43,153 nucleotides of DNA, from NCBI GenBank assembly GCA_023412995.1, contig JAEZQS010000147.1, positions 1 through 43,153 on the forward strand, in the 5' to 3' direction. Under the pieces are notes generated by a model, which worked only from the letters and a program-made list of their open reading frames with translations, did not search any database and was not told where the DNA came from. The DNA comes from Pseudomonadota bacterium (GTDB taxonomy: Bacteria > Pseudomonadota > Gammaproteobacteria > Xanthomonadales > Rhodanobacteraceae). This document shows, piece after piece, positions 1-17,789 of the stretch. The translations under genes and the position numbers were made by a program. The stretch's first letter is position 1, and each line of letters starts with the position of its first letter.

Positions 1-273
1 GAGCACCACGAGGACGTCCCCCGGCGCCACCCGGTCGCCGTCCGTCACCCGCCGCTCCAGCACGAGTCCCGCAATCTCGGCCCCGACCGCGACGCGCGAA
101 GGCGCCGCAATGCGGCCAGTGGCGACCACGGCCTGTTGGAGCGGCGCGGCGGCGACCACGTAACCCGGCAGGGCCGGGCCGCGCATCGCGGCGACGAGCC
201 ATGCCGCCAGCCCGAGCAGGGCGAGGGCCGCGGCGGCAAGCCACCCGCGGTGACGCGACCAGGTTTTCACCAT
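1..273 (-). CDS. Efflux transporter periplasmic adaptor (MFP/HlyD family), 5' part; runs off the window start
   Basis: Manual translation from ATG at 273: MVKTWSRHRGWLAAAALALLGLAAWL...VVATGRI...GAEIAGLVLERRVTDGDRVAPGDVLVVL; N-terminal TM plus lipoyl-like half motif. Confidence 0.8.
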   Translation of the reverse strand, partial: MVKTWSRHRGWLAAAALALLGLAAWLVAAMRGPALPGYVVAAAPLQQAVVATGRIAAPSRVAVGAEIAGLVLERRVTDGDRVAPGDVLVVL

Positions 274-685
274 CGGGGCCGGACTCCTGTAGCGGCACGC
301 GCGATGGTGCCATGGCGGGAACGTGCGCTTCACCCGCCGTATCGGCCGACTGCCCGGCTTGGGTGCCACGCATCTATAACAGGACGCGCGAGTGGGGTGG
401 CGGACGTGGCTGGCGGGGGCGGACTGTTCGGAGTGACGGACGGGTTTCCCGTCGGCTGCTCCATGCGATGGGCCTGCCTCGGCGGTGGGTGGGGCGCGCG
501 ACTGGCCCCGCGCGCATAATTGAGGTAAAATATGCAACGTAAATTACTGTTCCTGGAGAAAAAAGGAGGCAAGCAAAATCAACGCAACGGTCATGTCCTT
601 CTTCTTCCGCAGCAGGCCAGCCCGCCACCTGCACCCCACCCGCCCCGCCCTGCGCGGTCCCGGCTTCCAGACCTCACCACCCGCG

Positions 686-1143
686 TCCGTTCCCGGCTGC
701 CACGAGGCAGGTGCTCCCGCAAAACCGCCCTCGCGGCGCCGACGCGAACCGTCGGGGTATTCACCCCGCCAGCTGCGCCACTCCCGGTTTCGCATAAGCT
801 GACGCCGTTGCGCGTCTCGGTCCGGTCGGGGGCTGGCGCAGCACGCTTCGCATCGCAGCTCGCGACCTCCGAGACCACGGGAAATTGTCCCCGGCACCAT
901 TTCAGGTCGCTCGCGTACCGCCCGAATCCGTTCCCGGCGGCCGCGGGCAGGCATTCCCGGAAGCCGCCGTCACGCCGCCAGCACGAAGCGTCCGGGCAGT
1001 CGCCTCGCCAGCTGCGCCAATCCAGGTCTCGAAAGAGCTGACGCCGTTGCGCCTGTCGGTCCGATCGTCAGGTCTGGCGCACCACGCCGCGCGTCGCAGC
1101 TCGCAACCTCCAGGACCACGCGAAACTGTCCCCGGCACCATTT
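686..1143 (+). repeat. Diverged ~241-bp tandem duplication; each unit ends in the 21-bp repeat
   Basis: TCCGTTCCCGGC at 686 and 927; CGCCAGCTGCGCCA, GCTGACGCCGTTGCGC and TCGCAGCTCGC in both units; repeat copies at 882 and 1123. Confidence 0.85.
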
Positions 1144-1259
1144 CGGGGGTGGCAACGTCCAAGGCCACGCGAAATTGTCCCTGGCACCATTTTGTGCGAG
1201 ACCGTCCGAAATTGTCCCCGGCACCATTTCGAGAGTGGAAATTGTCCCTGGCACCATTT
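882..1259 (+). repeat. Cluster of five 21-bp REP-like repeats (882, 1123, 1172, 1209, 1239)
   Basis: AAA(T/C)TGTCCC(C/T)GGCACCATTT read directly; the last four copies are separated by 28, 16 and 9 nt. Confidence 0.95.
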
Positions 1260-1420
1260 TGGGGTTTTTCCGGAAGGCGCGAGGGTGGGGAATCGGTTGC
1301 CAGGTGCACTGGCCAGGGTGCCTGCATGGGACGCTTGGCGTCGTGGTAATACCGGTCCCGTGGTTGGTAATGGGCATACGGACGCGCTAGCGTTGCGCAG
1401 CGGGGTCGCCGGCATGCGCA

Positions 1421-1461
1421 CAGGCGATCCGCCGGCCTGCCGACAAGCGGCGGATCGCCTG
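1421..1461. promoter_or_regulatory. Perfect 14-bp inverted repeat just upstream of the 1476 start
   Basis: CAGGCGATCCGCCG-N13-CGGCGGATCGCCTG; function unknown. Confidence 0.5.
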
Positions 1462-1475
1462 CCCCGGGACCATCC

Positions 1476-2054
1476 ATGGATGCATTCAGCTATCTCTCGG
1501 TCATGATCTCCCTGATCCTCGGCCTGGCGATCACCCAGGTGTTGCAGGGATTCCGCGGTCTGATGCAGGCACGCTCGCGCCTCGTCGGGTATTGGCCCTC
1601 GGTGGTGTGGGCGTTCCTGGTCGTCGTGATCTCGGTACAGGCCTGGTGGTCGATGTTCGGCTTGCGCCTGCACGCCGACTGGACCTTCCTCGAGTTCTCG
1701 GCGGTGCTTGTGCAGTCGACCGTGTTATACCTGCTCGCCGCGCTGGTCCTGCCGGATGCCCACGGCGAAACAGCCGTCGACCTGGGTGCGTACTACGATG
1801 CCCAGCGGCGCTGGTTCTTTACCCTGCTGGTCATCCTGATCGTCACGAGCGTCGCCAAATCGCTCGTCATCGAACGCCAGCTGCCGCGTGCGCTGGACCT
1901 CGGCTTCCACGGCTTGTTCGCCCTGCTCGGCCTCAGCGGCGCCTTGACCGCCGGGCGTCGCTACCACGCCCTCCTCGCGCTCGCCGGAACCGTCGCGATC
2001 GGTGCCTACATCGCGCTGCTCTTCATGCACCTCGCGCAGCCCCCGGCGCGCTGA
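1476..2054 (+). CDS. Hypothetical multi-pass membrane protein
   Basis: 192 aa, about 6 hydrophobic segments, MDAFSYLSVMISLILGLAITQVL start. Confidence 0.8.
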   Translation: MDAFSYLSVMISLILGLAITQVLQGFRGLMQARSRLVGYWPSVVWAFLVVVISVQAWWSMFGLRLHADWTFLEFSAVLVQSTVLYLLAALVLPDAHGETAVDLGAYYDAQRRWFFTLLVILIVTSVAKSLVIERQLPRALDLGFHGLFALLGLSGALTAGRRYHALLALAGTVAIGAYIALLFMHLAQPPAR

Positions 2055-2066
2055 CGCCGCAGCCCG

Positions 2067-2087
2067 GAATGGTGCCAGGGACAATTT
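2067..2087 (-). repeat. 21-bp REP-like repeat, reverse copy
   Basis: GAATGGTGCCAGGGACAATTT. Confidence 0.9.
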
Positions 2088-2332
2088 CCTGCGGCGGCTT
2101 CCACCCGCCTGGCGCCAGGGCCATTCACCATGTCGTGGATCCTGCGCGCACGGCCGCACCTGCCTTCTCGCCATCGATCCCGCCGCCACCGCGTTCGAGG
2201 TGGCCCGGCCCGAACCTCCTGTCCGTTGACTCCTGCAGGACCCGGCATCCTTCCGGCAGCCCGCGCGCCGGCCCGGCGGCGGGGACGAAGGGTGCAGACG
2301 CGGTCCCGCACGCTGCACGACGGGGGTACATC

Positions 2333-3289
2333 ATGGCCAGCAAAATCGCATTTTCGATCCTTCTTTCCATCGCTCCGCTCACGATGGCGCATGCGCTTGG
2401 CGGACCCACGTTCGGCGGTCCGTCCACCGGCCTGTGGGCCCGACAGGGCGATGGCGGGCGCGGCTTCAACATCGACATCCAGGGTGACCTGATGACGGTC
2501 ACGACCTTCGTTTACACGCAAACGGGACAGCCGATCTGGTATCTCTCGTCGGGCTACTTCAACCACGACACCGGGCGTTTCCAGAGCACCTATGACAGCT
2601 ACTCCGATGGCCAGTGCTTCGGCTGCCCGCCGGACCAGCCGATCGTGCATGCCGGCGCAGCAGGCAACATGACGATCCAGTTCCACGACAACCAGTCGGC
2701 GACCATCACCACGCCCGGCGGTTCGATCGACATCCGGAAGTTCAACTACGGCTTCGCGACCGCAACCGACCTGCTGTACGGCGAATGGCTCGGCAGCTTC
2801 AACGCGGGTGGCCTGGTCGGGGGCGACTGGATGCTGTTCGGCTATCCGTTCGAGGATGGCGGCACTGTCTATGCGGCTGGAAACCTCGACGGCGATACGG
2901 AAGCGCTGATACTCGGAACGTATGTCCCCGACACCAATACCGTGCTGATCCTCGCGGGGCAGTCGAACAGCTCGTACCTCCACTGGTATTCGGTCGGCAT
3001 GGACGACCGCCGCGGCGCAGGCGAGGCGTGGGTGCTGCCCGAAGACGAGCTGCCGGGCGGGAACGGCGTGCCGGCCTTCCTCTCGCGCCTCCTGTACGAG
3101 TCGGAGATCACGTTTCTCGATGGCACGGTCTCGCCCGCGAGCGAACTGCCGCCGAACGAGGCTCATCCTGCCGGGAAGTCCGCGTGCACGAACGACTGCC
3201 GGCCGCGCAGCGAGTTCGAGGGCATGCGCGGCGTATTCGAGAAGGTGAGGCTCGAGAAGCGCGCCCGCCTCGCGAAACGCACGCCCTAG
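2333..3289 (+). CDS. Secreted hypothetical protein
   Basis: Signal peptide MASKIAFSILLSIAPLTMAHA; GLW..GDGGRGFNIDIQ..FVY..GQPIWY beta-rich body; 3' part of ORF 1592..3289. Confidence 0.75.
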   Translation: MASKIAFSILLSIAPLTMAHALGGPTFGGPSTGLWARQGDGGRGFNIDIQGDLMTVTTFVYTQTGQPIWYLSSGYFNHDTGRFQSTYDSYSDGQCFGCPPDQPIVHAGAAGNMTIQFHDNQSATITTPGGSIDIRKFNYGFATATDLLYGEWLGSFNAGGLVGGDWMLFGYPFEDGGTVYAAGNLDGDTEALILGTYVPDTNTVLILAGQSNSSYLHWYSVGMDDRRGAGEAWVLPEDELPGGNGVPAFLSRLLYESEITFLDGTVSPASELPPNEAHPAGKSACTNDCRPRSEFEGMRGVFEKVRLEKRARLAKRTP

Positions 3290-3340
3290 GCCAGCACGCC
3301 GGAGCGGCGCCTCGCGCCGGCGTGAGAAAATGGTGCGAGA

Positions 3341-3619
3341 AAATGGTGCCGGGGACAATTTCGCCGCCCCGTGGGCGTCAACATGGTGCCATGGGGAAGT
3401 TCTGCCGCTTTGACCGGTCGGACCCGCGGCAATCAGCTGCGTTCAATCGGCACGTCGCCAACTCGTCGAGCGCACTCGCGCCCGGCAGCAAGAGGCCCGA
3501 CGCGCAGGCCGATGGGTCACTCATCGATTCGCTGGAGCGATGGCAGGTGACCGGGAAATTGTCCCCGGCACCATTTTGGGTGATGCCAGCTGCCCGCGAA
3601 ATTGTCCCTGGCACCGTTT
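3341..3619. repeat. REP-like cluster: reverse copy 3341-3361, degenerate reverse copy ~3381-3401, forward copies 3556-3576 and 3599-3619
   Basis: 3341 AAATGGTGCCGGGGACAATTT is the exact reverse complement of the copy at 3556. Confidence 0.9.
3362..3555 (-). pseudogene. Possible decayed 3' fragment of a RAYT/Y1 transposase
   Basis: Minus strand DPSACASGLLLPGASALDELATCRLNAADCRGSDRSKRQ resembles the recalled RAYT C-terminal pattern (..EL..IR....LGSDRF..QI); bounded by an inverted repeat pair. Confidence 0.35.
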
Positions 3620-3634
3620 TTTGGGGTGGCGCGG

Positions 3635-4411
3635 TCAGGACTTGAGCTTGTACCCGGTGCGGAAGATCCACCACACGGCAGCGAGGCACAGCACGAGGAA
3701 GCCGAGCGTCATGCCGGCACTGACGACGACGTTGACGTCGGCGGTACCGTAGAAGCTCCAGCGCACGCCGCTGATCAGGTACACCACGGGATTGAACAAC
3801 GTGATCTTCTGCCACAGGGGCGGCAGCATGTTGATCGAATAGAACGCGCCGCCGAGGAAGGTGAGCGGCGTGACGATCATCAGCGGCACGACCTGCAGCT
3901 TCTGGAAGTCGTCGGCCCAGAGGCCGATGATGAAACCGAACAGGCTGAAGGTCACCGCCGTCAGCAGCAGGAAGCACAGCATCCAGAGCGGATGCGCGAT
4001 GTGGTAGGGAACGAAGAGTCGCGCCGTCACCAGTATGAGGATGCCGAGCAGCACCGACTTCGTAGCCGCCGCACCGACGTAGCCGACCACGACCTCGAAC
4101 GGCGATACCGGCGCGGACAGCAGCTCGTAGATCGTGCCCGCCCATTTCGGCATGTAGATGCCGAACGAGGCGTTGGAGATGCTCTCGTTGAGTAGTGACA
4201 GCATCAGCAGGCCCGGGATGATGAAGGCGCCGTAGCCGACCCCATCGATCTCGCCCATGCGCGATCCGATCGCTGCGCCGAACACCACGAAGTAGAGCGA
4301 TGTCGACAGCACCGGTGAGGCGATGCTCTGCATCAGGGTGCGGAACGTACGCGCCATCTCGAAGCGGTAGATGGCGGCAATGGCGTACAGGTTGATCGCG
4401 CGCGGGCTCAT
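3635..4411 (-). CDS. ABC-2 type transporter permease (YadH-like)
   Basis: [22 protein letters not shown]...[24 protein letters not shown] overlap with the ATPase stop. Confidence 0.92.
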
Positions 4412-5400
4412 CGGCGCGCCTCCGCGTCGGCGTCGTGCGCGGCACCAGCCCTGGCGTCGCGCGACCCCCCGTGCACCAGGCTGACGAAGATGTCCTCCAG
4501 CGAACTTTCGCTCGAATGCAGGTCCTTGAAGTCGATGCCGTGGTCGGCGAGCCGGCGAAGCAGCGTCGCGATGCCGGTGCGCTCGGCCTGGGTGTCGAAG
4601 GTGTAGACCAGCGTGAGTCCCCCGTCCACCAGCTCCAGCGGCTCGTCCGCGAGGGCGTCCGGAATGCGCTGGAGTGGCGCCTGCAGCTGGAGGGTAAGCT
4701 GCTTCCTGCCGAGCTTTCGCATCAGGACGTGCTTGTCCTCCACCACCACGAGGCCGCCCTTGTTGATCACGCCGATGCGATCGGCCATCTCCTCCGCTTC
4801 CTCGATGTAGTGCGTGGTCAGGATGATGGTGACGCCGCGGTCGCGCAGCTCGCGCACCAGCTGCCACATGTCGCGGCGGAGCTCTACATCGACCCCGGCC
4901 GTCGGCTCGTCCAGGAACAGGATCGCCGGTTCATGCGAGAGCGCCTTTGCGATCAGCACGCGACGCTTCATGCCGCCGGACAGCGTCATGATCTTGTTGT
5001 TGCGCTTGTCCCAGAGCGACAGGGCGCGCAGGACCCGTTCGAGGTGCGCGGGATCGGGTGGCCGGCCGAAGAGGCCGCGGCTGAAGCGCACCGTCGCCCA
5101 TACGGTCTCGAAGGCATCGGTGGACAGTTCCTGCGGCACCAGTCCGATCGCCATGCGCGCGGCACGCGCGTCGCGGACGATGTCGTGCCCGTCCGCGATC
5201 ACGGTGCCGGCGGTGGCGGTGACGATGCCGCAGACGATGTTGATGAGCGTGGTCTTGCCGGCGCCGTTCGGACCCAGCAGGGCGAAGATCTCGCCACGCC
5301 GGATGTCCAGGCTGACATCCTTCAGCGCGTGGAATCCCGATGCATACGTTTTGCTCACGTTGCGGATCGAAACGATGGGCAGCGTGTCGCTGGACGTCAT
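4408..5400 (-). CDS. ABC transporter ATP-binding protein (YadG-like)
   Basis: Walker A GPNGAGKT, signature LSGGM, Walker B ILFLDEP, H-loop TTHY; RBS GAGG. Confidence 0.95.
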
Positions 5401-5611
5401 GCGCGCTTCCTCTTTCACGGCGTGGTCCCAGGGGAGGGTGTGGGGCGAGGGCCTGCTGTCGGGAGCCGGACCGCCTGACATTCTAGGGACAACGTCCCGG
5501 GCCCGGCAGCGGCATGGCAGTGGCCTATTCCGTCACAGGGCCGCGCGATCATGCACCCACACGGCCCTCATGCGACGACGATCCAGCGCCGCGCGGATCG
5601 ACACCGGATCA

Positions 5612-5754
5612 AAATGGTGTCAGGGACAATTTGTCGGGAGCGAGCGAGGGCCGGGTGTGTCCACCGGTTCCGGATGCCCCGGCGGAGGTTTGCGGGGCGA
5701 AATTGTCCCTGACACCATTTGGTCCGTGGGCGGAAATTGTCCCTAACACCATTT
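5612..5754. repeat. REP-like cluster: reverse copy 5612-5632, forward copies 5700-5720 and 5734-5754
   Basis: AAATGGTGTCAGGGACAATTT and AAATTGTCCCTGACACCATTT are a perfect inverted pair 67 nt apart. Confidence 0.95.
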
Positions 5755-5779
5755 TCGGGGTGGCGTTCTGGGGCGCGGC

Positions 5780-6802
5780 TTACTGGGCGTGGATGGTCTG
5801 GCCGCGGAGTGGCTCGCCGTGGGCGATGGGGCGACCGTCGGCGACGTAGCCGTTGAAGAAGGCGGGCAGTCCAAGGCCGTTGCCGAAGCGGGGGCTGTCC
5901 TGCAGGTGGAAGTGCAGGTGGGGCTCGCTGGTGTTGCCGCTGTTTCCGCAGCGTCCGAGCAGTTGACCGCTGGTTACCGCCTGCCCGGGTTGGACGACGA
6001 TGCTGCCTTGTCGCATGTGCGCGAGCAGGGCGTACTCGTCGTGGCCGAGGTCGAGCATGACGTGGTTGCCGGCCGGTTGGAGGGAATTGGCCGTGCCGAT
6101 TGCCTGGTCGGACAGGTCGCCGACCACTTCCACCACGGTACCAGCGGCCGGGGCGAGGATGGGCTGGTTCCAGCAGTAGTACTGATCGAGCGCGCTGCCG
6201 TCACCGCGATGCGTGCTGCCGCCGAGGCGCTTGACGAAGTCATAGGCGAATCGCTGGCCAGGGTCCGCCGCGTGGTAGTTCTGTGCAAGGGTTCGTCCGC
6301 CCCAGAACACGTACCACTGCCCCTGGAAGGGCAACCGCAGGTCCGCGGTCGTGTCGCGCTCGAGATAGGGCGATGCCGCTTCGACCGGCGCGCTTTGCGC
6401 AGGTTGGATGGAGAACGCCGCCACCTTGCCGTCCGGTGCGAATACCCATTGCGTGCGGATCGGCGTCGGCCGCTTGCTCCAGCGCGACGTGCGCACATAC
6501 GCGTCGAGGCCGTCCACGTGCTGCAAGTCTTCGGAAAGGACGTCCTGCTCCTTCCCCAGTTGCTCGTCGACCTTGTCGCGAAAGGCCGTCAGCTTCGCCG
6601 CGTCCATGGCATCACGCATCCCCTGCCCGAAGCGGGCGCGCACCGGGGCGAGGTCGCGGTCGAGGAATGCGCGCGTGAGCGCCTGGCCGGCTGCCATGAC
6701 GTCCTCGCGTGGGGGCGTTGCCGTCGCCTCCGCTGCACGCGTTGGCATGGGCAGCAGGCAGGCTGTTGCGATTAGGATGAGGTGGACGAGGGTGCGACGC
6801 AT
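5780..6802 (-). CDS. Secreted M23 family metallopeptidase with N-terminal DUF3887-like domain
   Basis: Signal peptide; NYH..QRFAYDF, GNHV, LAHM, GNSGNTSEPHLHF. Confidence 0.88.
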   Translation of the reverse strand: MRRTLVHLILIATACLLPMPTRAAEATATPPREDVMAAGQALTRAFLDRDLAPVRARFGQGMRDAMDAAKLTAFRDKVDEQLGKEQDVLSEDLQHVDGLDAYVRTSRWSKRPTPIRTQWVFAPDGKVAAFSIQPAQSAPVEAASPYLERDTTADLRLPFQGQWYVFWGGRTLAQNYHAADPGQRFAYDFVKRLGGSTHRGDGSALDQYYCWNQPILAPAAGTVVEVVGDLSDQAIGTANSLQPAGNHVMLDLGHDEYALLAHMRQGSIVVQPGQAVTSGQLLGRCGNSGNTSEPHLHFHLQDSPRFGNGLGLPAFFNGYVADGRPIAHGEPLRGQTIHAQ

Positions 6803-6813
6803 GGGAATCTCCT

Positions 6814-7140
6814 TCAGGTCGCGCCGGCGCCGCCGACCAGCGCGGCCAGCTGGCGACGGTAGTGCGCGAGGGCGGTTCGCCCGACCGGCGTGATGGCCAC
6901 CCGCGTGAGCGGCTTGCGACCGCGATAGGTCTTTTCGATGGCCACCATCCCGCCGGCTTCAAGCCGGGAGAGGTGGCTCGAGAGGTTGCCCTTGCTGAGG
7001 CGACAGACGGTCTCCAGGAAACCGAAGTCGACCTGTTCTGCGCCGGAGAGGACGGTGAGGATCGCCAGTCGCGCAGGCTCGTGGACGAGTCGGTCGACCG
7101 ACAGCACGCCGTCCAGCACGGCCTGAGCGGGGCCGTTCAT
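6814..7140 (-). CDS. Winged-helix transcriptional regulator (MarR/ArsR-like, HTH_34 type)
   Basis: DRLVHEPARLAIL..GNLSSHLSRLEAGG..GRKPLTRVAITPVGR; ATGA coupling with the upstream gene. Confidence 0.88.
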   Translation of the reverse strand: MNGPAQAVLDGVLSVDRLVHEPARLAILTVLSGAEQVDFGFLETVCRLSKGNLSSHLSRLEAGGMVAIEKTYRGRKPLTRVAITPVGRTALAHYRRQLAALVGGAGAT

Positions 7141-7757
7141 TGCGCCACCGTCTCCCGCAACGCCGCGCGGATCGCGAGGAACTCCCGGTGTTCGCGCAGT
7201 CCCGCAACCATCGCAAGGGTGGCGCAGCCGGCGGCGTACACGAGCCACCATCCACCGTACGCCCCGCCGGCAGCGACCACGGCCGCCTGGCAGAACAGCA
7301 GCACGCCGACGAGGAAATCCCCTAGCGACCAGAACCAGCGCAGGGCGACGAATGGCAGCGCACCCACGAGTACCAGGTAGACCAGCATGCCGCTGCGGGG
7401 CAGGTCGCCCCCGTTCGCGAACAGCACGCCACCGATGACGAGGGCCGAGATGGTGAAGAGGAAAAAGGTCATCCAGCGCCGTTGGCGCTTCAGCGCGGGA
7501 GGAACCTGCTGCAGCGCGCGACCGTCGCGCTGGTAGTAGAACCGCCGCAACAGCTCCCGCGTCAGCAGCCACACGACCGGCAGTGAGACGAGCGCCACCT
7601 GCAGCACCCGGCCAAGCGGCAAAAAGGCGCCGAGCAGGAACGCGCAGAGCAGCAGCACGCCGCCCACCACCAATCCGAGCCCGCCGGCGCCTCGGGAGTA
7701 GCGCGCGTAACGCTCGGTCAGGCCTCGCAGGCGGTCGAGATCGGCAGGGGCAAGCAT
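7137..7757 (-). CDS. Hypothetical membrane protein
   Basis: 206 aa, about 6 TM segments; RBS GGAG upstream. Confidence 0.75.
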   Translation of the reverse strand: MLAPADLDRLRGLTERYARYSRGAGGLGLVVGGVLLLCAFLLGAFLPLGRVLQVALVSLPVVWLLTRELLRRFYYQRDGRALQQVPPALKRQRRWMTFFLFTISALVIGGVLFANGGDLPRSGMLVYLVLVGALPFVALRWFWSLGDFLVGVLLFCQAAVVAAGGAYGGWWLVYAAGCATLAMVAGLREHREFLAIRAALRETVAQ

Positions 7758-7785
7758 GTAGAATCTCCGGATAACGTGCCAACTA

Positions 7786-7800
7786 GTTTGCCACGCAAAC
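7786..7800. promoter_or_regulatory. Palindromic operator, probably for the co-transcribed winged-helix regulator
   Basis: GTTTGC-CAC-GCAAAC about 30 nt upstream of the 7757 start. Confidence 0.6.
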
Positions 7801-7837
7801 CTAATTCATGGCAACCCCTGTGTTCCGCGCCGTCGAA

Positions 7838-7858
7838 AAATGGTGCCAGGGACAATTT
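7838..7858 (-). repeat. 21-bp REP-like repeat, reverse copy
   Basis: AAATGGTGCCAGGGACAATTT. Confidence 0.95.
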
Positions 7859-8149
7859 CCGGCGCGACTGAGGGGTGCGCCGCCCGGGCTGCCGGCCCCG
7901 GAAGTGCTCGAGCGGCGTCCCGGCGAAGGACCTCGCGGCCCTGATGGCGCCACCCGCGTCATCTGACGACAGCCAGTGCAGCCAGGCCCTCGCGCTCGCC
8001 GGAACCGGTGTCGCGGCTTCGCGGTTCGTCAAGAATTGCAGGCACGACGACCGGGGCACAGTCTGACGCTGCGCACGCGCGATCGCGGCGACACGGCCGG
8101 GTATCCCCGGGCCATGAACCTGTTGGACCGAGGCAGTTCGGTCGCCGGC
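7859..8149 (+). pseudogene. Possible decayed 5'/core fragment of a RAYT/Y1 transposase
   Basis: Successive frames give ARLRGAPPGLP..VLERR, LMAPP..SQAL..RFVKNCRHDDRGTV* (TGA at 8064 where W is expected) and GYPRAMNLLDRGSSVA, in the order of the RAYT motifs. Confidence 0.4.
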
Positions 8150-8150
8150 T

Positions 8151-8777
8151 TCATCCGCCGTCGCAAATGGCCGCCAGTTCGTATGGTTCCTCGAGGAGGT
8201 GCCGCGGATTCGCCGCCCGCATCGACTCGGCCGTCGCATATCCCCAGGCGACCGCGCAGAAGCCAACGCCGGCCGCGTGTGCCGCCTCGGCGTCGGTGAT
8301 CTGGTCGCCGACGTAGAGCGCACGCTCCCGCGGGGTGCGGGTCGCTTTCAGCACCCGCTGGATGCGGCGTCGCTTGCCGAAGATGGACGCGCCGCATTCG
8401 ACATGCACCAGCCGCCGCCAGTGCTCGTCACCGAGTATGCGGCGGCAATTGCCGGCGGCGTTGGAAGACACCAGCGCCAGGGCAACACCGCGTCGATGCA
8501 GCTGGTGAAGCGCTTCGCCGATGCCGTCGAAGAGGGGTACCTCGGCCGCACGCATGAGATGCACGAAACGACGGGCGACGGCGGGAAGCTTCCAGCGGGG
8601 CAGGCCGACGTGGCGCATGACGTCGCGCGCGGAGCAGCCCCTCAGCATCGCGATCTCCGCGGCATCGATGCGGCGGAACCCGTATCGCGCCGCCAGCTGG
8701 TTGTGCACGCTGGCGAAGAACGGGAACGAGTCGGCGAGGGTGCCGTCGAGGTCGAGGATGATGAGGTCGTAGCGCAT
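8151..8777 (-). CDS. HAD-superfamily hydrolase (phosphoglycolate phosphatase-like)
   Basis: Motif I DLDGTLADS, motif II VSSN, motif IV YVGDQITD, VAWGY. Confidence 0.92.
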   Translation of the reverse strand: MRYDLIILDLDGTLADSFPFFASVHNQLAARYGFRRIDAAEIAMLRGCSARDVMRHVGLPRWKLPAVARRFVHLMRAAEVPLFDGIGEALHQLHRRGVALALVSSNAAGNCRRILGDEHWRRLVHVECGASIFGKRRRIQRVLKATRTPRERALYVGDQITDAEAAHAAGVGFCAVAWGYATAESMRAANPRHLLEEPYELAAICDGG

Positions 8778-8948
8778 GGTTGTCGTGATCAGCGATGGGG
8801 CGCACGCATGGCCAGGCGCGCGTCCCAGGAGCGCGGTGTTTACTTTACGGACGTCCAGCCCGCCCAATGCCCGTAGCGGGGATCGCGGCTGGTCATCGCA
8901 ATACGGTTGCGAAGCCGCTTTTGCGGAGGTGCACCCGGACTCCGGCGC

Positions 8949-9051
8949 CTATGGTCCCTGGCACCATGCGGGCTCCTGTCCACGGCGCACCGGGTCGAAA
9001 ATTGTCCCTGGCACCATTTTCCGCCATCGGAAATTGTCCCTAGCACCATTT
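8949..9051 (+). repeat. REP-like cluster: degenerate copy 8949-8969, copies 8999-9019 and 9031-9051
   Basis: AAATTGTCCCTGGCACCATTT and AAATTGTCCCTAGCACCATTT. Confidence 0.92.
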
Positions 9052-9080
9052 TGGTCTCCTGGGCGCGGGTGAGGGGGTGG

Positions 9081-9124
9081 GTGCCGGGGACGGGGATCCG
9101 CCTCGGTGGAGGGGTCTCCGGCAC
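9081..9124 (-). terminator. GC-rich hairpin downstream of the Cys-rich ORF
   Basis: GTGCCGGGGA...TCTCCGGCAC stem; no clear U-tract. Confidence 0.3.
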
Positions 9125-9133
9125 CTTCGCCGG

Positions 9134-9280
9134 TCAGCGGGAGTGGCAGTGGCAAGGGGCCGCGGTGCGGCAGCCGCAGGCGCAGGCCGGCGTACTCGCC
9201 GGGGTGGCCTGGCAGCCGCAGTGGCAGGGGATCGCGCACTGGGCGCAGGTGCAGGGAACGGCGTGGGTCTGGGCGTTCAT
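9134..9280 (-). CDS. Small Cys/His-rich metallothionein-like protein (48 aa)
   Basis: MNAQTHAVPCTCAQCAIPCHCGCQATPASTPACACGCRTAAPCHCHSR; 11 Cys, 4 His; RBS GAGG. Confidence 0.7.
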   Translation of the reverse strand: MNAQTHAVPCTCAQCAIPCHCGCQATPASTPACACGCRTAAPCHCHSR

Positions 9281-9412
9281 GGGGATTCCTCGGTAGTTGG
9301 GGGTACGGACCTTGATCCGTGGCGCCATTCTCGCGAGCATCGCGGGGCATCGCTTGAACGGAACGGCTGACTTCGACGCATGCCAGCAGCGGAATGCCCG
9401 GGGTCGCCGGTC

Positions 9413-10204
9413 ATGATCGCTTCGCGCGATCGTTCGACGCGCAGTGTGCTCGGCGTCGGCCGTGTGGTGATGTGGAAGGGTGGCAGCGCGTGGGTCGGGC
9501 GGGAGACCGGCGAGGCGCTGGCGCACCGCCACCACGCCATGCAGGTGACGCTGGGTACGCGACCGTTCCGCATCCGCTCCGCGGGCGAGCGGGACTGGCT
9601 CGAGGCATGTGCCGCCATCGTCATGCCCGATCGGCCGCACCTGTTCGACGGCTGCGGACATGCGGTGGCGATGGTGTTCGTCGAGCCGGAGACCCAGGCC
9701 GGCCGCGCGCTGCTCGCGCGCTTCGGTGATCGCGACCTGAGCCTCCTTGATGATCCCGCTCTGGGCGCGTGCACCATCGCGCTGCACGAGGCATTCCAGT
9801 CCCGCGATACCGACGCGGCCCTGGTCGATGCCGCGCAGCGCGTAGTCAGCCAGCTGGCCGGTGGGGACGCCCACGGACAGGCGGTGGTGGATGCACGCAT
9901 CCTTGCCGTGCTCGATCGCATCCGCAACGCCCCTGCCGTGCCCATCGACCTGGCAACGGCAGCCGCGATCGCGCACCTTTCACCCAGCCGTTTCCGCCAC
10001 CTCTTCGTGGCGCAGACCGGTATTTCCTTCCGCGCCTACCTCCTGTGGGCACGCGTGGGTTTCGCCGTCACGCGCGGAATGGCGGGATCCTCCTGGACGG
10101 ACGCCGCGCAGGAGGCCGGTTTCGCCGACTCCGCCCACCTCAGCCGGACCTGCCGCCGCATGTTCGGCATCGCGCCCTCCATGCTGCTGCCAGAATCCAC
10201 CTGA
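9413..10204 (+). CDS. AraC family transcriptional regulator (start could be 9380)
   Basis: N-terminal H.HHAMQ cupin-like motif; LSPSRFRHLF..AGFADSAHLSRTCRRMFG. Confidence 0.92.
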   Translation: MIASRDRSTRSVLGVGRVVMWKGGSAWVGRETGEALAHRHHAMQVTLGTRPFRIRSAGERDWLEACAAIVMPDRPHLFDGCGHAVAMVFVEPETQAGRALLARFGDRDLSLLDDPALGACTIALHEAFQSRDTDAALVDAAQRVVSQLAGGDAHGQAVVDARILAVLDRIRNAPAVPIDLATAAAIAHLSPSRFRHLFVAQTGISFRAYLLWARVGFAVTRGMAGSSWTDAAQEAGFADSAHLSRTCRRMFGIAPSMLLPEST

Positions 10205-10328: not shown

Positions 10329-11441
10329 TCAGCCGCCGGTGGCCAGCGGCCGCACGTACTCCAGCAGGCTCACGAGCATCTTTCCCGGTTCTTCCCACGG
10401 GATCATGTGCGCGGAGCGCTCGAACCAGATGCCCTTCGCATACGGCGCACGCACCTTCGCCAGCCACTGGGCAGTCGGCGCGGAGGGGGTGGTGTAGTCG
10501 TGCCGACCCATGAACATCAGCACCGGGATGGGGAAATCCGTGACGTGCTTGAAGTCGACCTGCAGGAACTCGGGCAGGACGCGGCCGAGGGTGAAGGCGT
10601 TGCCCTCGTCGATTGCCCGCATCGCCTCGCAGTCATAGGCGGGCGACAGCAGCGCGGCATCGAAGTAGTACCTGGCGGCGCCATCGCGGAACGCACTCAG
10701 GCCGCCGTAGAACTGCGGCCACCTGCGCGCGATGATGATGCGCTCCCGCGTGATGGGCTCGTCGCCAGGGTAGGGTGCAATGGACTCGAGTTCGCCAACC
10801 GCCTCGCGATTGCCGTGTTCGCGCGCCTGGTCGAGCCCGTACTGGAAGCTGATGCGTTCGTTGTCGCGGGTGTTGATCACCTGGCCGATGCCGACGTAGG
10901 CATGGAACAGGTCCGGACGCTTCAGCGCGGCCTTCATGGCGATGATCGTGCCCCAGCTGTGCCCCATCAGGACGAGCTTGCGCTGGTCGTAGCGATTGCG
11001 CAGGAGCTCGGCCATCGCGATGGCATCGTCGACGTAGCGCGCGATGTGCAGGGTGTCGGCCACCGCGTCCGGATCGTTGGCGAGCCAGGTGCGGCCGGCA
11101 CCGCGCTGGTCGTAGGTGGCGACCGTGAAGTACTCCTCGATGGGCCGCTGGAACTCCCACATGGCAGGCATCAGGGGCGAGGCCGGACCGCCATGCACGA
11201 ACAGGATGAGCGGATTGGCCCGGTCCTGCCCGCGCACCGAAACCCACTGGTCGATGCCGCCGACATGCGCCTTGAAGGTTTCCTGGATGCCGCCCGGCGC
11301 GACGATGCGCTGCAGGTCGGCGACGACGGCGCGCGCCTTGTCGTAGGACGCGCCTTCCGGGCAGTCCGGCGCGGCCGCATTGGCGACGGCGCTGGCGGTA
11401 CCGGCAACGAGCAGCAGCAGGGTGATGGCGACGGATTTCAT
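10329..11441 (-). CDS. Secreted alpha/beta hydrolase (proline iminopeptidase-like)
   Basis: Signal peptide; HGGP, DQRGAG, GHSWG nucleophile, GRHD, SAH; RBS GAGGAG. Confidence 0.9.
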   Translation of the reverse strand: MKSVAITLLLLVAGTASAVANAAAPDCPEGASYDKARAVVADLQRIVAPGGIQETFKAHVGGIDQWVSVRGQDRANPLILFVHGGPASPLMPAMWEFQRPIEEYFTVATYDQRGAGRTWLANDPDAVADTLHIARYVDDAIAMAELLRNRYDQRKLVLMGHSWGTIIAMKAALKRPDLFHAYVGIGQVINTRDNERISFQYGLDQAREHGNREAVGELESIAPYPGDEPITRERIIIARRWPQFYGGLSAFRDGAARYYFDAALLSPAYDCEAMRAIDEGNAFTLGRVLPEFLQVDFKHVTDFPIPVLMFMGRHDYTTPSAPTAQWLAKVRAPYAKGIWFERSAHMIPWEEPGKMLVSLLEYVRPLATGG

Positions 11442-11598
11442 GCAGGACACTCCTCGTGGCGCGGGCCGGCGGTCTTGCATCGGCATGCGGCGGATCGATG
11501 GAATGGTACCCGAGCGCCGATTGCATCCGGCGCGGCGCGCGTGCACAGTCCGCGCAGCGCCGCTGCAACTCCCTTCAGTGCACACGGTGGGCCACGCC

Positions 11599-12973: not shown

Positions 12974-13689
12974 GGTGCGGCGCCATCCACCGGCGGCCCA
13001 TCGAGCCGCTTGCCCCAGTGTTCCACCGCCGCGGTTTCGATGCGGCGGCGCAGGAGCTTCAGCCAGGAAGGCGGCAGCGGCAACGCGGCAGCCGCTTCGA
13101 GCAGGACGGGATCGAGCACGCGGTCGAACAGCACGCCGAGCAGGCGGCTGAGCGGCCAGTCCGGCCAGGGCCGTTCGACGATCGCCATGCGATCGCCGCG
13201 ACGCAGTTCGCCCTCCGACAGCACGCGGTAATACCAGCCGGTGCGACCGGTCGACTGCACCTGGCGCGCCATCGCGGGTTCGGCGAAGCGGTCGTTGAGT
13301 TTCCAGCAGGGCTGGCGTGCCTGCGAGACCTCGAGCAGCGTGCTTCCGACCGTCACCACGTCGCCGAGGCAGATGTTGCGCTCGGTCCAGCCAAGGGTGG
13401 AAAGGTTCTCGCCGAAGGCTCCCGGCTGCTCCAGTGCGCTGCGCCCCGGCAGTTCCCTGCGCCAGGCCGCGTAGTGCTCCCAGGCGTACTGGTGCACGGC
13501 CTTGTCGGGCCCGCCGTGCACGCGCGGGTCGCCCTGCTCGTCGCCTGCAAGCCCGTTGGGGGTCACGCGCACCGGGCCCTCGAGCGGCTTCTTGTCGATG
13601 CCGCTGCGGGTGCCCGGACGCGTGTAGGGCACCGCCCGTCCGAGCAGCACCGAACGAAGCGGCGTGGGTGGCGGAACCGGGATGGCCAT
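12970..13689 (-). CDS. MOSC domain protein (YiiM-like) with 3-alpha tail
   Basis: GDEQGD.RVHGGPDKAVH, GAFGENL, RQPCWKL, GRTGWYYRVL. Confidence 0.92.
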   Translation of the reverse strand: MAIPVPPPTPLRSVLLGRAVPYTRPGTRSGIDKKPLEGPVRVTPNGLAGDEQGDPRVHGGPDKAVHQYAWEHYAAWRRELPGRSALEQPGAFGENLSTLGWTERNICLGDVVTVGSTLLEVSQARQPCWKLNDRFAEPAMARQVQSTGRTGWYYRVLSEGELRRGDRMAIVERPWPDWPLSRLLGVLFDRVLDPVLLEAAAALPLPPSWLKLLRRRIETAAVEHWGKRLDGPPVDGAAP

Positions 13690-14386: not shown

Positions 14387-14542
14387 ATGAGCAACCTGCA
14401 CGAAGACAACGAACCGGTGCCGGCAATCCAGCGGCTGCTGGACAATCCTTTCCTGCTCCTGTTCGTGGGCGTGCTGATGCCCACGGTGATTTACATCCTG
14501 TGGGGCGTCATCGACATCCTGACGATTCCGCTGGCGAAGTGA
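14387..14542 (+). CDS. Small single-TM protein, first gene of the heme-copper operon (possible subunit IIa-like)
   Basis: MSNLHEDNEPVPAIQRLLDNPFLLLFVGVLMPTVIYILWGVIDILTIPLAK; purine-rich RBS. Confidence 0.75.
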   Translation: MSNLHEDNEPVPAIQRLLDNPFLLLFVGVLMPTVIYILWGVIDILTIPLAK

Positions 14543-14580
14543 CCACTGCCCGCGCCGCGGGCGAAGAAGGGGAATGATCC

Positions 14581-15120
14581 ATGAGCGCCATCCTGCCGCC
14601 CGCAGAACGACTGTGGTGGAAGCACCCGCTCGACCGCGTCGAGGGGACCTGGATCACCATCGCATTCCTGTGGTGCATGGTGCTGTTCTTCATGATGGTC
14701 TACTGGCACGTCGAGGGCCGCCAGAACCTGTCCACCGAGACCTACAAGACCACCCCCGCGGCCTACAGCGCGAAGGCCGAGGCGATGGTGGCGCAGTGGA
14801 CGGTGCGCACGGAAACCGACATGCAGACGCCGGTGGTGGCCCCGCCGGCCGGCAGCGACATCTACCTCGTGGCGCGGCTGTGGAGCTTCTGGCCGATCCT
14901 GGAGCTGCAGAAGGACGCCACCTACCGCCTGCACCTGTCCTCGATGGACTACAACCACGGCTTCTCGCTGCAGCCGATCAACATCAACATCCAGATCGTT
15001 CCCGGCTACGAACACGTGGTCACCGTCACTCCGAACGAGCGCGGCGAGCTGGCGATCGTGTGCAACGAGTTCTGCGGCATGGGCCATCACATGATGGTCG
15101 GCCGCATCTACGTCAAGTAA
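14581..15120 (+). CDS. Heme-copper oxidase superfamily subunit II (single TM, CuA; B-family-like)
   Basis: NHGF...CNEFCGMGHHMM is a complete CuA ligand set. Confidence 0.92.
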   Translation: MSAILPPAERLWWKHPLDRVEGTWITIAFLWCMVLFFMMVYWHVEGRQNLSTETYKTTPAAYSAKAEAMVAQWTVRTETDMQTPVVAPPAGSDIYLVARLWSFWPILELQKDATYRLHLSSMDYNHGFSLQPININIQIVPGYEHVVTVTPNERGELAIVCNEFCGMGHHMMVGRIYVK

Positions 15121-15132
15121 AGGGAGCCGGCC

Positions 15133-16857
15133 ATGACCACGCTTGCAGTCACGGCGCCCCGTGGCGCCACCGTGTACCGCACCTGCCCGCGCTCGGGCCT
15201 GCAGTTCGAGAAGCATGCCGAGCGGCTCATCCTCGCCAATGCGGTCGCCGCCGTGGTGTTCCTGCTCATCGGCGGCCTGCTCGCCATCGGCATCGTGTTG
15301 ACGCGCTGGCCGGCCGTGCACTGGCTGGAAGCGCACACCTTCTACCAGGTGCTCACCGCGCACGGCCTGGACATGCTGGTGTTCTGGATCATCTTCTTCG
15401 AGATCGCCGTCCTCTACTTCTGCTCGTCCACGCTGCTGCGCTGCCGGCTGGCCACGCCGAGGCTGGCGTGGCTCGCGTTCGCGCTGATGCTGATCGGCGC
15501 CACCGTCAACAACATCGCGGTGTACCAGGGCGGGTCGAGCGTGATGATGACCTCCTACGTGCCGATGATGGCGGCGCCCTCGTTCTATCTCGGGCTGATC
15601 CTCTTCGCCGTGGGCGCGCTGGTCGCGATCTTCATCTTCTTCGGCACGCTGGTGATCGCCCGCGCCGATCGCACCTACACCGGCTCGGTTCCGCTGGTGA
15701 CCTTCGGCGCGATCACCGCGGCGATCATCGCGGTGTTCACCATCGCCTCGGGAGCGGCGATCCTGATCCCGACCTGGCTCTTGTCCCTGCACGTGATCGA
15801 GGCGGTGGATCCCCTGATCTACCGCACGGTCTGGTGGGCCTTCGGGCATTCCTCGCAGCAGATCAACGTGGCCGCGCACATCTCGATCTGGTACCTGGTG
15901 GCGGCGGTGGTGTTCGGCGCCCGCCCGATGTCCGAGCGGGTCAGCCGTGGCGCGTTCCTGCTCTACATCTTCTTCCTGCAGCTGGCCAGCGCCCACCACC
16001 TCCTGGCCGATCCCGGCATGAGCACCGAGTGGAAGGTCGTCAACACGAGCTACTTCATGTACTTCGCCGTGCTGGCCTCGATGATCCATGGCCTGACCAT
16101 CCCGGGCGCTATGGAAGTGGCGCAGCGGCAGAAGGGCTACACGCGCGGGCTGTTCGAATGGTTGCGCAAGGCGCCGTGGGGCAACCCGGTGTTTTCCGGC
16201 GTCTTCATCTCGCTCATCGGCTTCGGATTCCTCGGCGGCATTTCCGGCGTGATGATGGGCACCGAACAGCTCAACATGATCATCCACAACACGATCTACG
16301 TTCCCGGGCACTTCCATGCCACGGTCGTGATCGGCACGACGCTGTCGTTCATGGCGCTGACCTACTACCTCATTCCGACGCTGTTCCGGCGCCAGATGAT
16401 CAACCCGGGCCTCGCGCGCATCCAGCCGTACCTGTTCGGCCTGTCGATGTACTTCTTCTGCCTGCTGATGATGGGGGCCGGCACGCTCGGCGTGCCGCGC
16501 CGGCACTGGGACATGGAATTCAACGGCGTGGCACTGGCCTACGAGTGGCCGGGCGCCGCGTATCTGATGATGGGACTGGTGGGCATTGCCGGACTATGCG
16601 CGATCCTCGGCGGCGCCTTCTACATCTACATCACGGTCGGTTCGCTGCTGTGGGGCAAGCGCCTGGACAGCGGCGCGCGTGAAGCCGTGCCGACGCCGAT
16701 CCCGCCTACCTCGCCGGCGGCACCGGTGCAGGCCTACGGTTCGATGGGGTTTGCGGCGCCGGGGACGTTCGCGCTGGCGATGGTGTTCCTGGTGGCATTC
16801 GCCCTCTATTACTTCGTCAACTGGAAATACCTGTCCACCCTCTGGCTGCTGAGCTGA
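15133..16857 (+). CDS. Heme-copper superfamily subunit I, eNOR-type nitric oxide reductase
   Basis: TAHG, WAFGHSSQQ (Gln at the H-x3-Y position), AHH, GHFH, PRR. Confidence 0.8.
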   Translation: MTTLAVTAPRGATVYRTCPRSGLQFEKHAERLILANAVAAVVFLLIGGLLAIGIVLTRWPAVHWLEAHTFYQVLTAHGLDMLVFWIIFFEIAVLYFCSSTLLRCRLATPRLAWLAFALMLIGATVNNIAVYQGGSSVMMTSYVPMMAAPSFYLGLILFAVGALVAIFIFFGTLVIARADRTYTGSVPLVTFGAITAAIIAVFTIASGAAILIPTWLLSLHVIEAVDPLIYRTVWWAFGHSSQQINVAAHISIWYLVAAVVFGARPMSERVSRGAFLLYIFFLQLASAHHLLADPGMSTEWKVVNTSYFMYFAVLASMIHGLTIPGAMEVAQRQKGYTRGLFEWLRKAPWGNPVFSGVFISLIGFGFLGGISGVMMGTEQLNMIIHNTIYVPGHFHATVVIGTTLSFMALTYYLIPTLFRRQMINPGLARIQPYLFGLSMYFFCLLMMGAGTLGVPRRHWDMEFNGVALAYEWPGAAYLMMGLVGIAGLCAILGGAFYIYITVGSLLWGKRLDSGAREAVPTPIPPTSPAAPVQAYGSMGFAAPGTFALAMVFLVAFALYYFVNWKYLSTLWLLS

Positions 16858-16871
16858 GGCGGGAGGCTGCC

Positions 16872-17789
16872 ATGAGTCGCCCGCTGCAGTCCGCCATGCC
16901 CACCCGGCGCGCGGCGCCGTCCGCCTGGGCCATGGCACGCACTGTGCTCGGCCTGTTCAAGCTGCGCATCGGCATGCTGATCATGCTGACGGCGCTGGTG
17001 GGAGCCGCCATCACGCCTGGGCCGGCGCTGGGGCCTGCCCGCTACCTCGTGCTGGCGCTCTCGGTGCTGGTGGCGTCGGCCAGTGCCGGGGCGTTCAACC
17101 AGTACCACGAGCGCGGCTCGGATCGTCTGATGGCGCGCACGCGCCAGCGCGCCTTCGCCACCGGTGCGGTGCGGGCCTCGCCCGCGTGGCTGCTGCTGGC
17201 CGCAGCCCTGCTCGCGGCGGCGGTGGCGGCAGCCTGTCTGGTGCTCAATCCCGCCAGTGCGGCGTTTGTCTTCCTCGGAGCCTTCTTCTACGCCATCGTC
17301 TACACCGTCTGGCTGAAACGCCGCACGCGCTGGAACATCGTCGTCGGCGGACTCGCCGGCAGCTTTGCCGTCCTTGCCGGAGGTTGCGCGGTGGCGCCGG
17401 TGCCTTCGGCGCTGCCGCTGCTGCTGGCGCTGGTGCTGTTCCTGTGGACGCCGCCGCATTTCTGGGCGCTGGCCATCGCCTGCCGCGACGACTACCGCGC
17501 CGCCGGCATTCCCATGCTGCCCGTGGTCGCCGGCAATGCCGCCGCCGCCCGCGCGGTACTCGCTTCCACCCTCGCCCTGCTGCTGGTGTCCCTGCTGCCG
17601 CTGGCATGTGGCGCGGGTCCGGTTTACGGCGTCGGCGCCCTTGCGGGAGGCAGCCTGTTCGTCGCCAGGGCCGTGGCGCTGGTGCGCACGCCCGATGACC
17701 GGCGCGTCGCGACAGCGTGCTTCTTCGCCTCGCTGGTGCAGCTCAGCGTGCTGCTGCTGGCGGCCACCCTGGACGCGATGGCGGGATGA
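16872..17789 (+). CDS. ctaB: Protoheme IX farnesyltransferase (heme O synthase)
   Basis: KLRI, AFNQY..D.LMARTRQR, YTVWLKRRT, LWTPPHFWALA..DDY..AGIPMLP. Confidence 0.92.
   Translation: MSRPLQSAMPTRRAAPSAWAMARTVLGLFKLRIGMLIMLTALVGAAITPGPALGPARYLVLALSVLVASASAGAFNQYHERGSDRLMARTRQRAFATGAVRASPAWLLLAAALLAAAVAAACLVLNPASAAFVFLGAFFYAIVYTVWLKRRTRWNIVVGGLAGSFAVLAGGCAVAPVPSALPLLLALVLFLWTPPHFWALAIACRDDYRAAGIPMLPVVAGNAAAARAVLASTLALLLVSLLPLACGAGPVYGVGALAGGSLFVARAVALVRTPDDRRVATACFFASLVQLSVLLLAATLDAMAG

Follow-up and report, generated by a model that had tools for sequence, protein, structure and literature searches.

Canonical REP/REPIN-RAYT systems, that is, repetitive extragenic palindromic (REP) sequences, their hairpin-forming doublets (REPINs) and the REP-associated tyrosine transposases (RAYTs), were reportedly set out by Bertels and Rainey in 2011. 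A canonical REP carries a 5' GT(A/G)G head or a CGTC tag and a G+C-rich palindrome and usually exists in more than 100 dispersed copies (Nunvar 2010, PMC2817692; Di Nocera 2013, PMC3733652), and the hallmark of a RAYT is a gene flanked by two inverted repeats on each side (Nunvar 2010, PMC2817692). A related class, the TIRtrons, whose enzymes are the terminal inverted repeat-associated tyrosine transposases (TIRYTs), comprises RAYT-like genes bordered by inverted repeats that have no relation to GTAG REPs and that in some cases share the motif GGGGWSAS; these repeat families are moderately abundant, occur in dimers or clusters, are most numerous in Stenotrophomonas maltophilia, and can overlap the 3' end of the gene (Di Nocera 2013, PMC3733652). 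A later survey (Quentin et al. 2018, PMC6006769) tentatively equates TIRYTs with its subclass 2.1 of TnpA-Y1 and matches that subclass to group 1 of the RAYTs in Bertels et al. 2017 (PMC5581495). This subclass contains long class 2 proteins with a Y---NP signature, a conserved C-terminal extension and low copy number (PMC6006769), and its genes have flanking 16-mers of modest frequency (PMC6006769, PMC5581495), with no REP-like sequences reported nearby (Quentin et al. 2018, PMC6006769). Here we describe a 21-nucleotide repeat that punctuates the first 9 kb of contig JAEZQS010000147.1 (43,153 nucleotides, the whole of which is called the window below), from a gammaproteobacterium of the Rhodanobacteraceae, together with the transposase gene on another contig of the same assembly to which the repeat probably belongs.

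The 21-mer, of consensus gAAATTGTCCCTGGCACCATTT, is probably the repeat family of a RAYT-like HUH/Y1 tyrosine transposase of the TIRYT type, with copies that have spread locally. A Pfam Y1_Tnp search of the source genome (G000) gave four matches, the best of which is on contig C186, where an intact open reading frame (ORF) of 255 amino acids (aa) scores 54-56 bits against a cut-off of 23. An earlier reading of the window made from its letters alone, hereafter the sequence-only reading, had pointed to an intact Y1_Tnp/RAYT gene flanked by the motif as the thing to look for, and such a gene is present here, with two inverted copies on each side (locus L001: 929(-) and 1064(-) just past the stop codon, 1953(+) and 1996(+) upstream of the start). 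On the coding strand the unit reads reverse-complement copy, gene, forward copy, and the -/+ pairs seen in intergenic gaps have the same ends without the gene. Residues of the HUH motif (H60, H62) and Y120, N124 and P125 of the YxxxNP motif are invariant in 19 aligned homologues. The AlphaFold model has a mean predicted local distance difference test (pLDDT) of 76.6, with blocks over residues 11-180 mostly at 84-96, and its best Foldseek match in the PDB is 4er8_A, the E. coli REP-associated tyrosine transposase (E 6.3e-8, template modelling (TM) score 0.72 on the target, 160/165 aligned columns), which outranks the IS200/IS608 transposases; a sequence search of the PDB with the enzyme gave nothing relevant. 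Both the alignment and the model show a helical C-terminal extension that is conserved in the aligned homologues and has no Pfam match even at E up to 10, Bac_DnaA_C and HTH included. Judged by its length and motifs, the enzyme probably falls in subclass 2.1/group 1. Many members of the family end in ...NCP*, encoded by the repeat itself (AAT TGT CCC TGA), as seen in L013, L121 and L036; the G000 enzyme has a repeat variant without TGA at the stop site, and its ORF tail is different and longer. Soil Xanthomonadales commonly carry this clade: E is <=1e-10 for 7910 of the 8000 candidates scored, and the sources label these proteins just 'transposase'. Most database members of the family lie on contigs of 1-3 kb, which fits flanking repeats breaking metagenome assemblies.

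A second RAYT in the same genome, at 107-968 of contig C289 (L004), is canonical: its gene (125-616, minus strand, 163 aa) is flanked by GTAG-headed REPs of two alternating sequence types and orientations, in a layout like that of bacterial interspersed mosaic elements (BIMEs), and this REP family is dispersed on 43-52 contigs. The canonical RAYT on C289 and the Y1 gene on C186 therefore represent two separate systems in one genome.

The repeat and the gene are linked both physically and phylogenetically. The exact 21-mer was found in 25 stretches of species-representative genomes, mostly titled Rhodanobacteraceae, Rhodanobacter, Oleiagrimonas, Dyella, Luteimonas or Lysobacterales, the remaining titles being 'Proteobacteria bacterium' or 'Gammaproteobacteria bacterium'. 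Orthologues 71-77% identical to the C186 enzyme have the same repeat flanks in Oleiagrimonas soli, Dyella kyungheensis, G047/G090 and the congeners G205 and G199, as does a fragment in O. citrea that is 81% identical over 37 aa, and repeat flanking of the gene was also confirmed in G041. In G000, O. soli and O. citrea alike, 87 bp separate the upstream copy from the start codon. In a comparison with 150 further genomes of the order, matches of >=61% identity turned up in nine, three of these matches being partial; the repeat is present in eight of the nine, and in seven it has four or more copies. Among the other 141 genomes, the repeat is present in eight and has four or more copies in two. 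Relatives are not independent, so these co-occurrence counts are a description rather than a test. No copy appears at <=1 mismatch in 24 genomes of the genus, and orthologues of 73-74% identity occur only in G199, G041 and G205, all three of which carry the repeat.

Copies of the repeat are few (6 to 69 per genome) and clustered in short zones, the densest of which usually surrounds the transposase gene. In G205, an assembly of 10 contigs, 17 of the 19 copies fall within 60 kb (C4:1413482-1473243) around the gene at 1435631-1436314; seven of the ten copies in G199 are on the gene's own contig, 17 of 40 in Dyella lie within 2.6 kb around the gene, and seven of 19 in O. soli within 4.4 kb, with other groups in the latter at ~307-313 kb and 1484-1485 kb. 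G047 has 60 copies, at least 22 of them in 26 kb of one contig. The source genome shows the same pattern. Its assembly (2.77 Mb, 371 contigs, estimated at 81% complete with 1.24% contamination) contains 69 copies at <=3 mismatches on just 11 contigs: 18 on C186, 15 on C328 (the window), 11 on C218, 9 on C221 and 16 on seven others. When copies within 300 bp are merged into sites, 33 sites fall on 11 contigs, compared with a mean of 31 contigs and a minimum of 26 in 2000 trials of random placement. The GTAG-headed REPs of the same assembly, used as an internal control, are spread as random placement predicts (56 sites on 52 contigs, 48 sites on 43), and the clustering of the 21-mer is therefore real and specific to the family rather than an effect of the assembly. 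This bears out the proposal of the sequence-only reading that the motif is strictly clustered and not evenly dispersed over the genome. Genes of the G205 region match eight G000 contigs at >=60% identity, four of which bear repeats (C29, C186, C233, C218), although repeat-bearing contigs make up only ~6% of the assembly by length (a rough estimate); at least part of the repeat-bearing DNA of G000 thus corresponds to the same chromosomal region around the gene.

In the window itself, a motif scan at <=3 mismatches located 15 of 15 clear copies at exactly the coordinates and strands listed by the sequence-only reading, with 0-2 mismatches each, and chance matches to the 21-mer are not expected (no match in any of 100 shuffles). 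The two degenerate copies of that list, at 3381(-) and 8949(+), are both present with five mismatches each. Genes were called with a codon-usage model trained on the long ORFs of the genome and supported by Pfam, and on these calls each of the six gaps that separate transcription units in 1-9445 contains one or more copies, while a scan at <=6 mismatches found none in the window outside 882-9051, and none of the 16 gaps of >=100 bp in 10205-43153 (counted by hand from the gene table) holds one. The contrast drawn in that reading between the first 9 kb and the other 34 kb is upheld, and the first 9 kb of the window is one of a few multi-kilobase zones in which nearly every gap between units is filled.

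The five clear copies of gap A (274-1475) are all on the plus strand, at 882..902, 1172..1192, 1209..1229 and 1239..1259 without mismatch and at 1123..1143 with one, the last in position (1239) being upstream of a membrane-protein gene (1476-2054, plus) without a Pfam family and with DNA matches in congeners. A third degenerate copy, of the 3381 type, was read by eye at ~299..320(-), having been missed by the pattern scans, in the long gap upstream of an HlyD-like N-terminus (1-272, minus; Pfam). A blastn comparison of gap A with the genome also revealed a tandem duplication of ~233 bp (676-906 and 917-1147, plus strand, 80% identical), each unit of which ends in one repeat copy (882, 1123), that is, two of the five clear copies of this gap. 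Gap B (2055-2332), between the membrane-protein gene and another gene with DNA matches in congeners and no Pfam family (2333-3289, plus), contains one copy with one mismatch, 13 bp past the stop of the former (2067..2087, minus). Gap C (3290-3634) contains copies at 3341..3361(-) and 3556..3576(+) without mismatch, the degenerate copy 3381..3401(-), recovered by a relaxed scan, and a copy with one mismatch at 3599..3619(+), separated by 16 bp from the stop codon of an ABC-2 permease gene (3635-4411, minus), which forms a unit with an ATPase gene (3635-5418, minus; Pfam). Gap D (5419-5779) contains a -/+ pair with one mismatch in each arm (5612..5632, minus, on the left; 5700..5720, plus, on the right), followed by a copy with two mismatches (5734..5754, plus) adjoining the stop of an M23 peptidase gene (5780-6802, minus); this gene, an HTH_34 regulator and an unknown gene occupy 5780-7757 on the minus strand (Pfam). 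A single copy without mismatch (7838..7858, minus) lies in gap E (7758-8150), and gap F (8778-9445), between a HAD hydrolase gene (8151-8777, minus) and an AraC-family gene (9446-10204, plus; both Pfam), contains the degenerate copy 8949..8969(+), also from the relaxed scan, and the copies 8999..9019(+) and 9031..9051(+), with no and one mismatch, respectively.

Partial copies of the 3' half (GCACCATTT or similar) adjoin full copies at 3328-3336 of the window, beside the 3341 copy, and on contigs C186 and C218, and are occasionally stacked as two or three short tandem units. A 13-base match resembling the core, TGTCCCCGACACC, lies at 2923-2935 inside gene 2333-3289 and has no A/T-rich ends; it may be due to chance or represent an old intragenic copy. 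That every copy is intergenic, as the sequence-only reading had it, holds for the window but not for the genome as a whole, where contig C29 (L126) has an in-frame -/+ pair at 301-382 within a 3'-open ORF that is 556 aa or longer; the pair is translated ...AKWCQGQF...KIVPGTIS.... To the eye, and as an impression made with no family search, this ORF resembles a fused B12-binding/MeaB-type GTPase protein (IcmF-like). A repeat pair occupies the same site in the congener G205 (L120, ~13482-13560; G+C 62% compared with 69% in the stretches examined), the coding flanks having diverged by ~15-20% (by eye) and the 21-mers being 21/21 and 20/21 identical.

Such zones could also owe their clustering to their origin, as islands acquired horizontally from a repeat-rich donor or as foreign contigs binned into the assembly. 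The slightly lower G+C of the first 9 kb (0.65-0.705, below much of the remaining window), the 24 congeners that lack a copy and the patchy occurrence of close enzyme orthologues across three families would suit this explanation. Set against it, the repeat zone of the window is joined on one contig to 34 kb without repeats, the contamination estimate is low, the same clustering is seen in well-assembled genomes, and no sampled genome has a high, dispersed copy number that would mark it as a donor. Moreover, GTAG REPs of this genome also occur on four of the repeat-bearing contigs (C221, C328, C355 and C8), which argues that such contigs belong to it, and the pair that G000 and G205 share at one site of one gene points to vertical descent. 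We consider an acquired or foreign origin extremely unlikely.

The sequence-only reading saw in this locus an integron-like hot spot in which the repeats are recombination sites for the capture, loss and shuffling of unrelated modules, and several observations speak for this. The repeat zones hold a miscellany of unrelated, mostly small genes of accessory type (glyoxalases, GST, SnoaL, YjbR, HAD, AraC and many DUFs, by Pfam). The gene order of the first 14 kb of the window is not kept in congeners: its homologues are spread over four contigs of G016, in which the ABC operon has as neighbors an oppositely oriented HAD gene (45% identical) and a homologue of window gene 34779-35225, and in G024 the homologue of gene 1476-2054 adjoins a hydrolase homologue of 10329-11450. 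The ABC operon is a widely conserved two-gene unit with different neighbours in all 80 metagenome loci examined (794 kb, 78-94% identical), and none of the 80 carries a repeat copy or the neighbouring genes of the window. Between O. soli and O. citrea, flanks that are 88-94% identical surround larger segments that are non-homologous even at the protein level and dotted with copies, and homology breaks off at several points 9-18 bp away from a copy. The gene content around the repeats turns over. The sequence-only reading proposed to look for module breakpoints that coincide with the repeats across relatives; the congeners compared are distant, however (~75-85% identity), and with the repeat in all six gaps any breakpoint must coincide with a copy, which makes the coincidence uninformative.

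Other evidence separates these loci from integrons, which consist of an IntI tyrosine recombinase gene and attI beside an array with one attC per cassette in uniform orientation. No tyrosine recombinase (PF00589) was found on the 11 repeat-bearing contigs, three matches being on C88, C155 and C322, although in an assembly 81% complete this absence is not proof. The repeats occur in both orientations and in tandem runs, and no module was seen in two different repeat-bounded contexts among the metagenome loci and the loci of other genomes. Of 37 genes in the G205 zone, 8 (22%) have an orthologue in G000, a proportion inside the span of three control regions (41%, 20%, 53%) and limited by the gene caller, which was trained on G000 and under-calls genes in the lower-G+C G205. 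Three conserved blocks (A, B, C) are colinear and in the same orientation in the two Oleiagrimonas species, while the repeat/transposase units demonstrably differ in position: in one species the full unit separates B from C, in the other it precedes A, and O. citrea has a 5' gene fragment bounded by two copies between A and B. The C7 zone of O. citrea (G051) contains a full unit (325891-326705), the 5' fragment (323792-324005) and a more distant paralogue (~317816-318142, ~61% at the protein level). Public reads bear little on the matter. Only two soil runs contained small shares of the window (0.07 and 0.05 of sampled words), as short contigs of relatives that were mostly <95% identical, and at read joints such as 5631>8999 and 7862>8999 each side spans just 21-23 letters, which are the repeat itself and are silent on excision or inversion. 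Short contigs of relatives ~90-95% identical span the gene-repeat junctions 5565-5924, 7425-7865 and 8053-9023, which is a weak sign of stability. Altogether, nothing shows that the intervening genes, which are ordinary, unrelated accessory genes, move as cassettes, and the integron-like proposal is very unlikely to be correct.

A weaker, HUH-based analogue of that proposal would treat these loci as plasticity zones, in which short-range spread of the 21-mer is followed by recombination or strand transfer between copies that deletes, inverts or replaces accessory genes. If so, the enzyme and its repeats would form a local engine of gene-content change at a fixed chromosomal address, and the subclass 2.1/TIRYT enzymes would gain a defined 21-nucleotide target. 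We give this a small chance of being right. The explanation that we favor is a repeat family spread locally by its own TIRYT-type transposase. The enzyme would spread copies mainly over short range, preferentially near its own gene; local tandem duplication appears to add further copies, as suggested by the 233-bp duplication that carries copies 882 and 1123; and continued recognition by the enzyme may keep the 21 positions conserved while the enzyme itself has diverged by ~25-30%.

Several points weigh against this explanation. No transposition event was observed, and the enzyme scores 62.4 bits against the NCBIfam RAYT equivalog NF047646, under its cut-off of 80. G184 has 12 copies, yet its homologue is only 49% identical. 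Several of the clusters of O. soli and Dyella are remote from the gene, so nearness to it is a tendency and not a rule, and the window did not map to the gene region of G205 and is unplaced relative to C186 in the 371-contig assembly. Alignment of the A|B interval of O. soli with that of O. citrea gave no clean empty site, since the intervals differ by replacement and not by simple insertion, and in the 80 metagenome loci, the loci of other genomes and the genome itself the gaps match only other repeat copies. Conservation among the 69 genomic copies covers a 22-nucleotide core and nothing beyond, so that the -/+ pairs are not copies of one miniature element. Folding gives the last point. Known Y1 enzymes recognize hairpins in single-stranded DNA. 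The sequence-only reading described the motif as an imperfect hairpin, yet single copies folded as single-stranded DNA reach -3.6 and -4.0 kcal/mol and are no more stable than shuffled sequence (z -0.45, +0.18), and only the -/+ pair at 5606-5725 folds strongly (-37.7 kcal/mol, z -7.0). Such pairs could offer a hairpin, yet many copies are single or in direct runs. As to orientation, reverse copies precede forward copies within a gap of the window, as that reading had noticed, and genome-wide the adjacent pairs <=300 bp apart comprise 15 -+, 15 ++, 6 -- and no +- arrangement.

The same folding results bear on another reading, in which the 21-mer would serve a host function, chiefly as a double-stranded DNA binding site like an iteron or operator, bound by a domesticated transposase homologue or another protein, the clustering then reflecting that function. 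That a single copy forms no hairpin would agree with this, as would the roughly equal conservation of all 21 positions with no compensatory pattern, the near-identity of the sequence between genomes whose enzymes are ~70-75% identical, tandem spacings down to 24-45 bp (for example in Dyella), the in-frame pair kept at the same site of a conserved gene in two congeners, and the conserved helical C-terminal extension of the enzyme. Yet copies lie upstream of genes, downstream of genes and between convergent genes, in no fixed relation to promoters; the neighboring genes are functionally unrelated; copy positions differ between close species; and the partial copies and the duplicated block resemble debris of a mobile or recombining repeat. 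We regard a host binding site as unlikely.

Two more specific identities were also rejected. A sigma-54 promoter was considered given that the motif contains TGGCAC; its -12 bases are not TTGC (by eye), and copies occur in tandem and downstream of genes. A Xer/dif-like or lox-like core site (7-7-7) was dropped in view of the tandem runs, the lack of a nearby recombinase and the link to a Y1 enzyme. A dif-like pattern matches O. soli at 1,824,593, ~260 kb from the transposase zone, and Dyella on a different contig, with no match in G000 or G205, and shows no link to the replication terminus. Elsewhere in the window, block 14426-20000 is colinear in only 3 of the 30 congeners searched (G002, G044, G010) and looks like a repeat-free accessory operon. 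Genome-wide, runs of a 7-base unit (GGGAATG-type and variants) supply the most frequent 16-mers, with ~80 occurrences on 35 contigs.

RAYT-like enzymes with a C-terminal extension (TIRYTs, probably subclass 2.1/group 1) are the largest and least understood part of the RAYTs. The clade described here has a sharply defined 21-nucleotide cognate repeat, often lying over the stop codon of the gene, low in copy number and piled up near the gene, which provides a concrete candidate substrate for biochemistry. A dispersed canonical REP system and a locally clustered one can also be contrasted here within a single genome. In annotation, the repeats explain long 'empty' gaps, spurious ORFs translated as ...VPGTIS... 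or ...NCPWHHF... and probably contig breaks.

Compared with integrons, the locus shares an array of unrelated small genes split by an imperfectly palindromic repeat, but no integrase was found near the repeats, which are 21 bp long, lie in both orientations and in tandem runs at 1-5 copies per gap, and are tied to an HUH/Y1 enzyme, and the genes are on both strands and in multi-gene operons. The remaining comparisons are with the systems as described in the accessible portions of the papers cited at the outset. As in canonical REP systems, the repeats are short and extragenic, inverted pairs fold as long hairpins, there are clusters and copies near the gene, the gene has two inverted copies on each side, and the fold of the enzyme is closest to that of the E. 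coli RAYT. Unlike canonical REPs, neither strand of the 21-mer has GTAG, GTGG or CGTC at an end, there is no G+C-rich palindrome and a single copy is unfolded, and copies are counted in tens and strongly clustered (69 on 11/371 contigs; 6-60 in other genomes) instead of in hundreds and dispersed; the enzyme too differs from canonical RAYTs, with ~230 aa, a C-terminal extension and a score under the NCBIfam RAYT cut-off. The enzyme resembles subclass 2.1 in being long, with Y---NP, a C-terminal extension and low copy number, but its gene has a clear cognate repeat family, compared with none in Quentin et al. (2018, PMC6006769). The REP/RAYT idea of the sequence-only reading thus survives for the enzyme, a RAYT-like Y1 transposase flanked by the repeat, and fails for the repeat, which departs from a canonical REP in head, palindrome and abundance and fits the published TIRtron/TIRYT class. 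Here too, a RAYT-like gene is flanked by inverted non-GTAG repeats, and the repeat occurs elsewhere in the genome as singles, dimers and groups. The TIRYT motif GGGGWSAS, present in some terminal inverted repeats only, agrees with the reverse complement of the 21-mer at 7/8 positions for the C variant and 6/8 for the common T variant. The type of element is already in print. For the exact 21-mer, a literature search with its core 12-mer on either strand found nothing on bacterial repeats by title and start of abstract, and no printed description was found in the literature covered, which does not extend to the figures and supplements of Di Nocera 2013. Beyond the accessible description of TIRYTs (PMC3733652), the present family adds multi-kilobase zones in which hardly a gap is left empty, a build-up of copies around the gene in several genera, and a stop codon that lies within the repeat.

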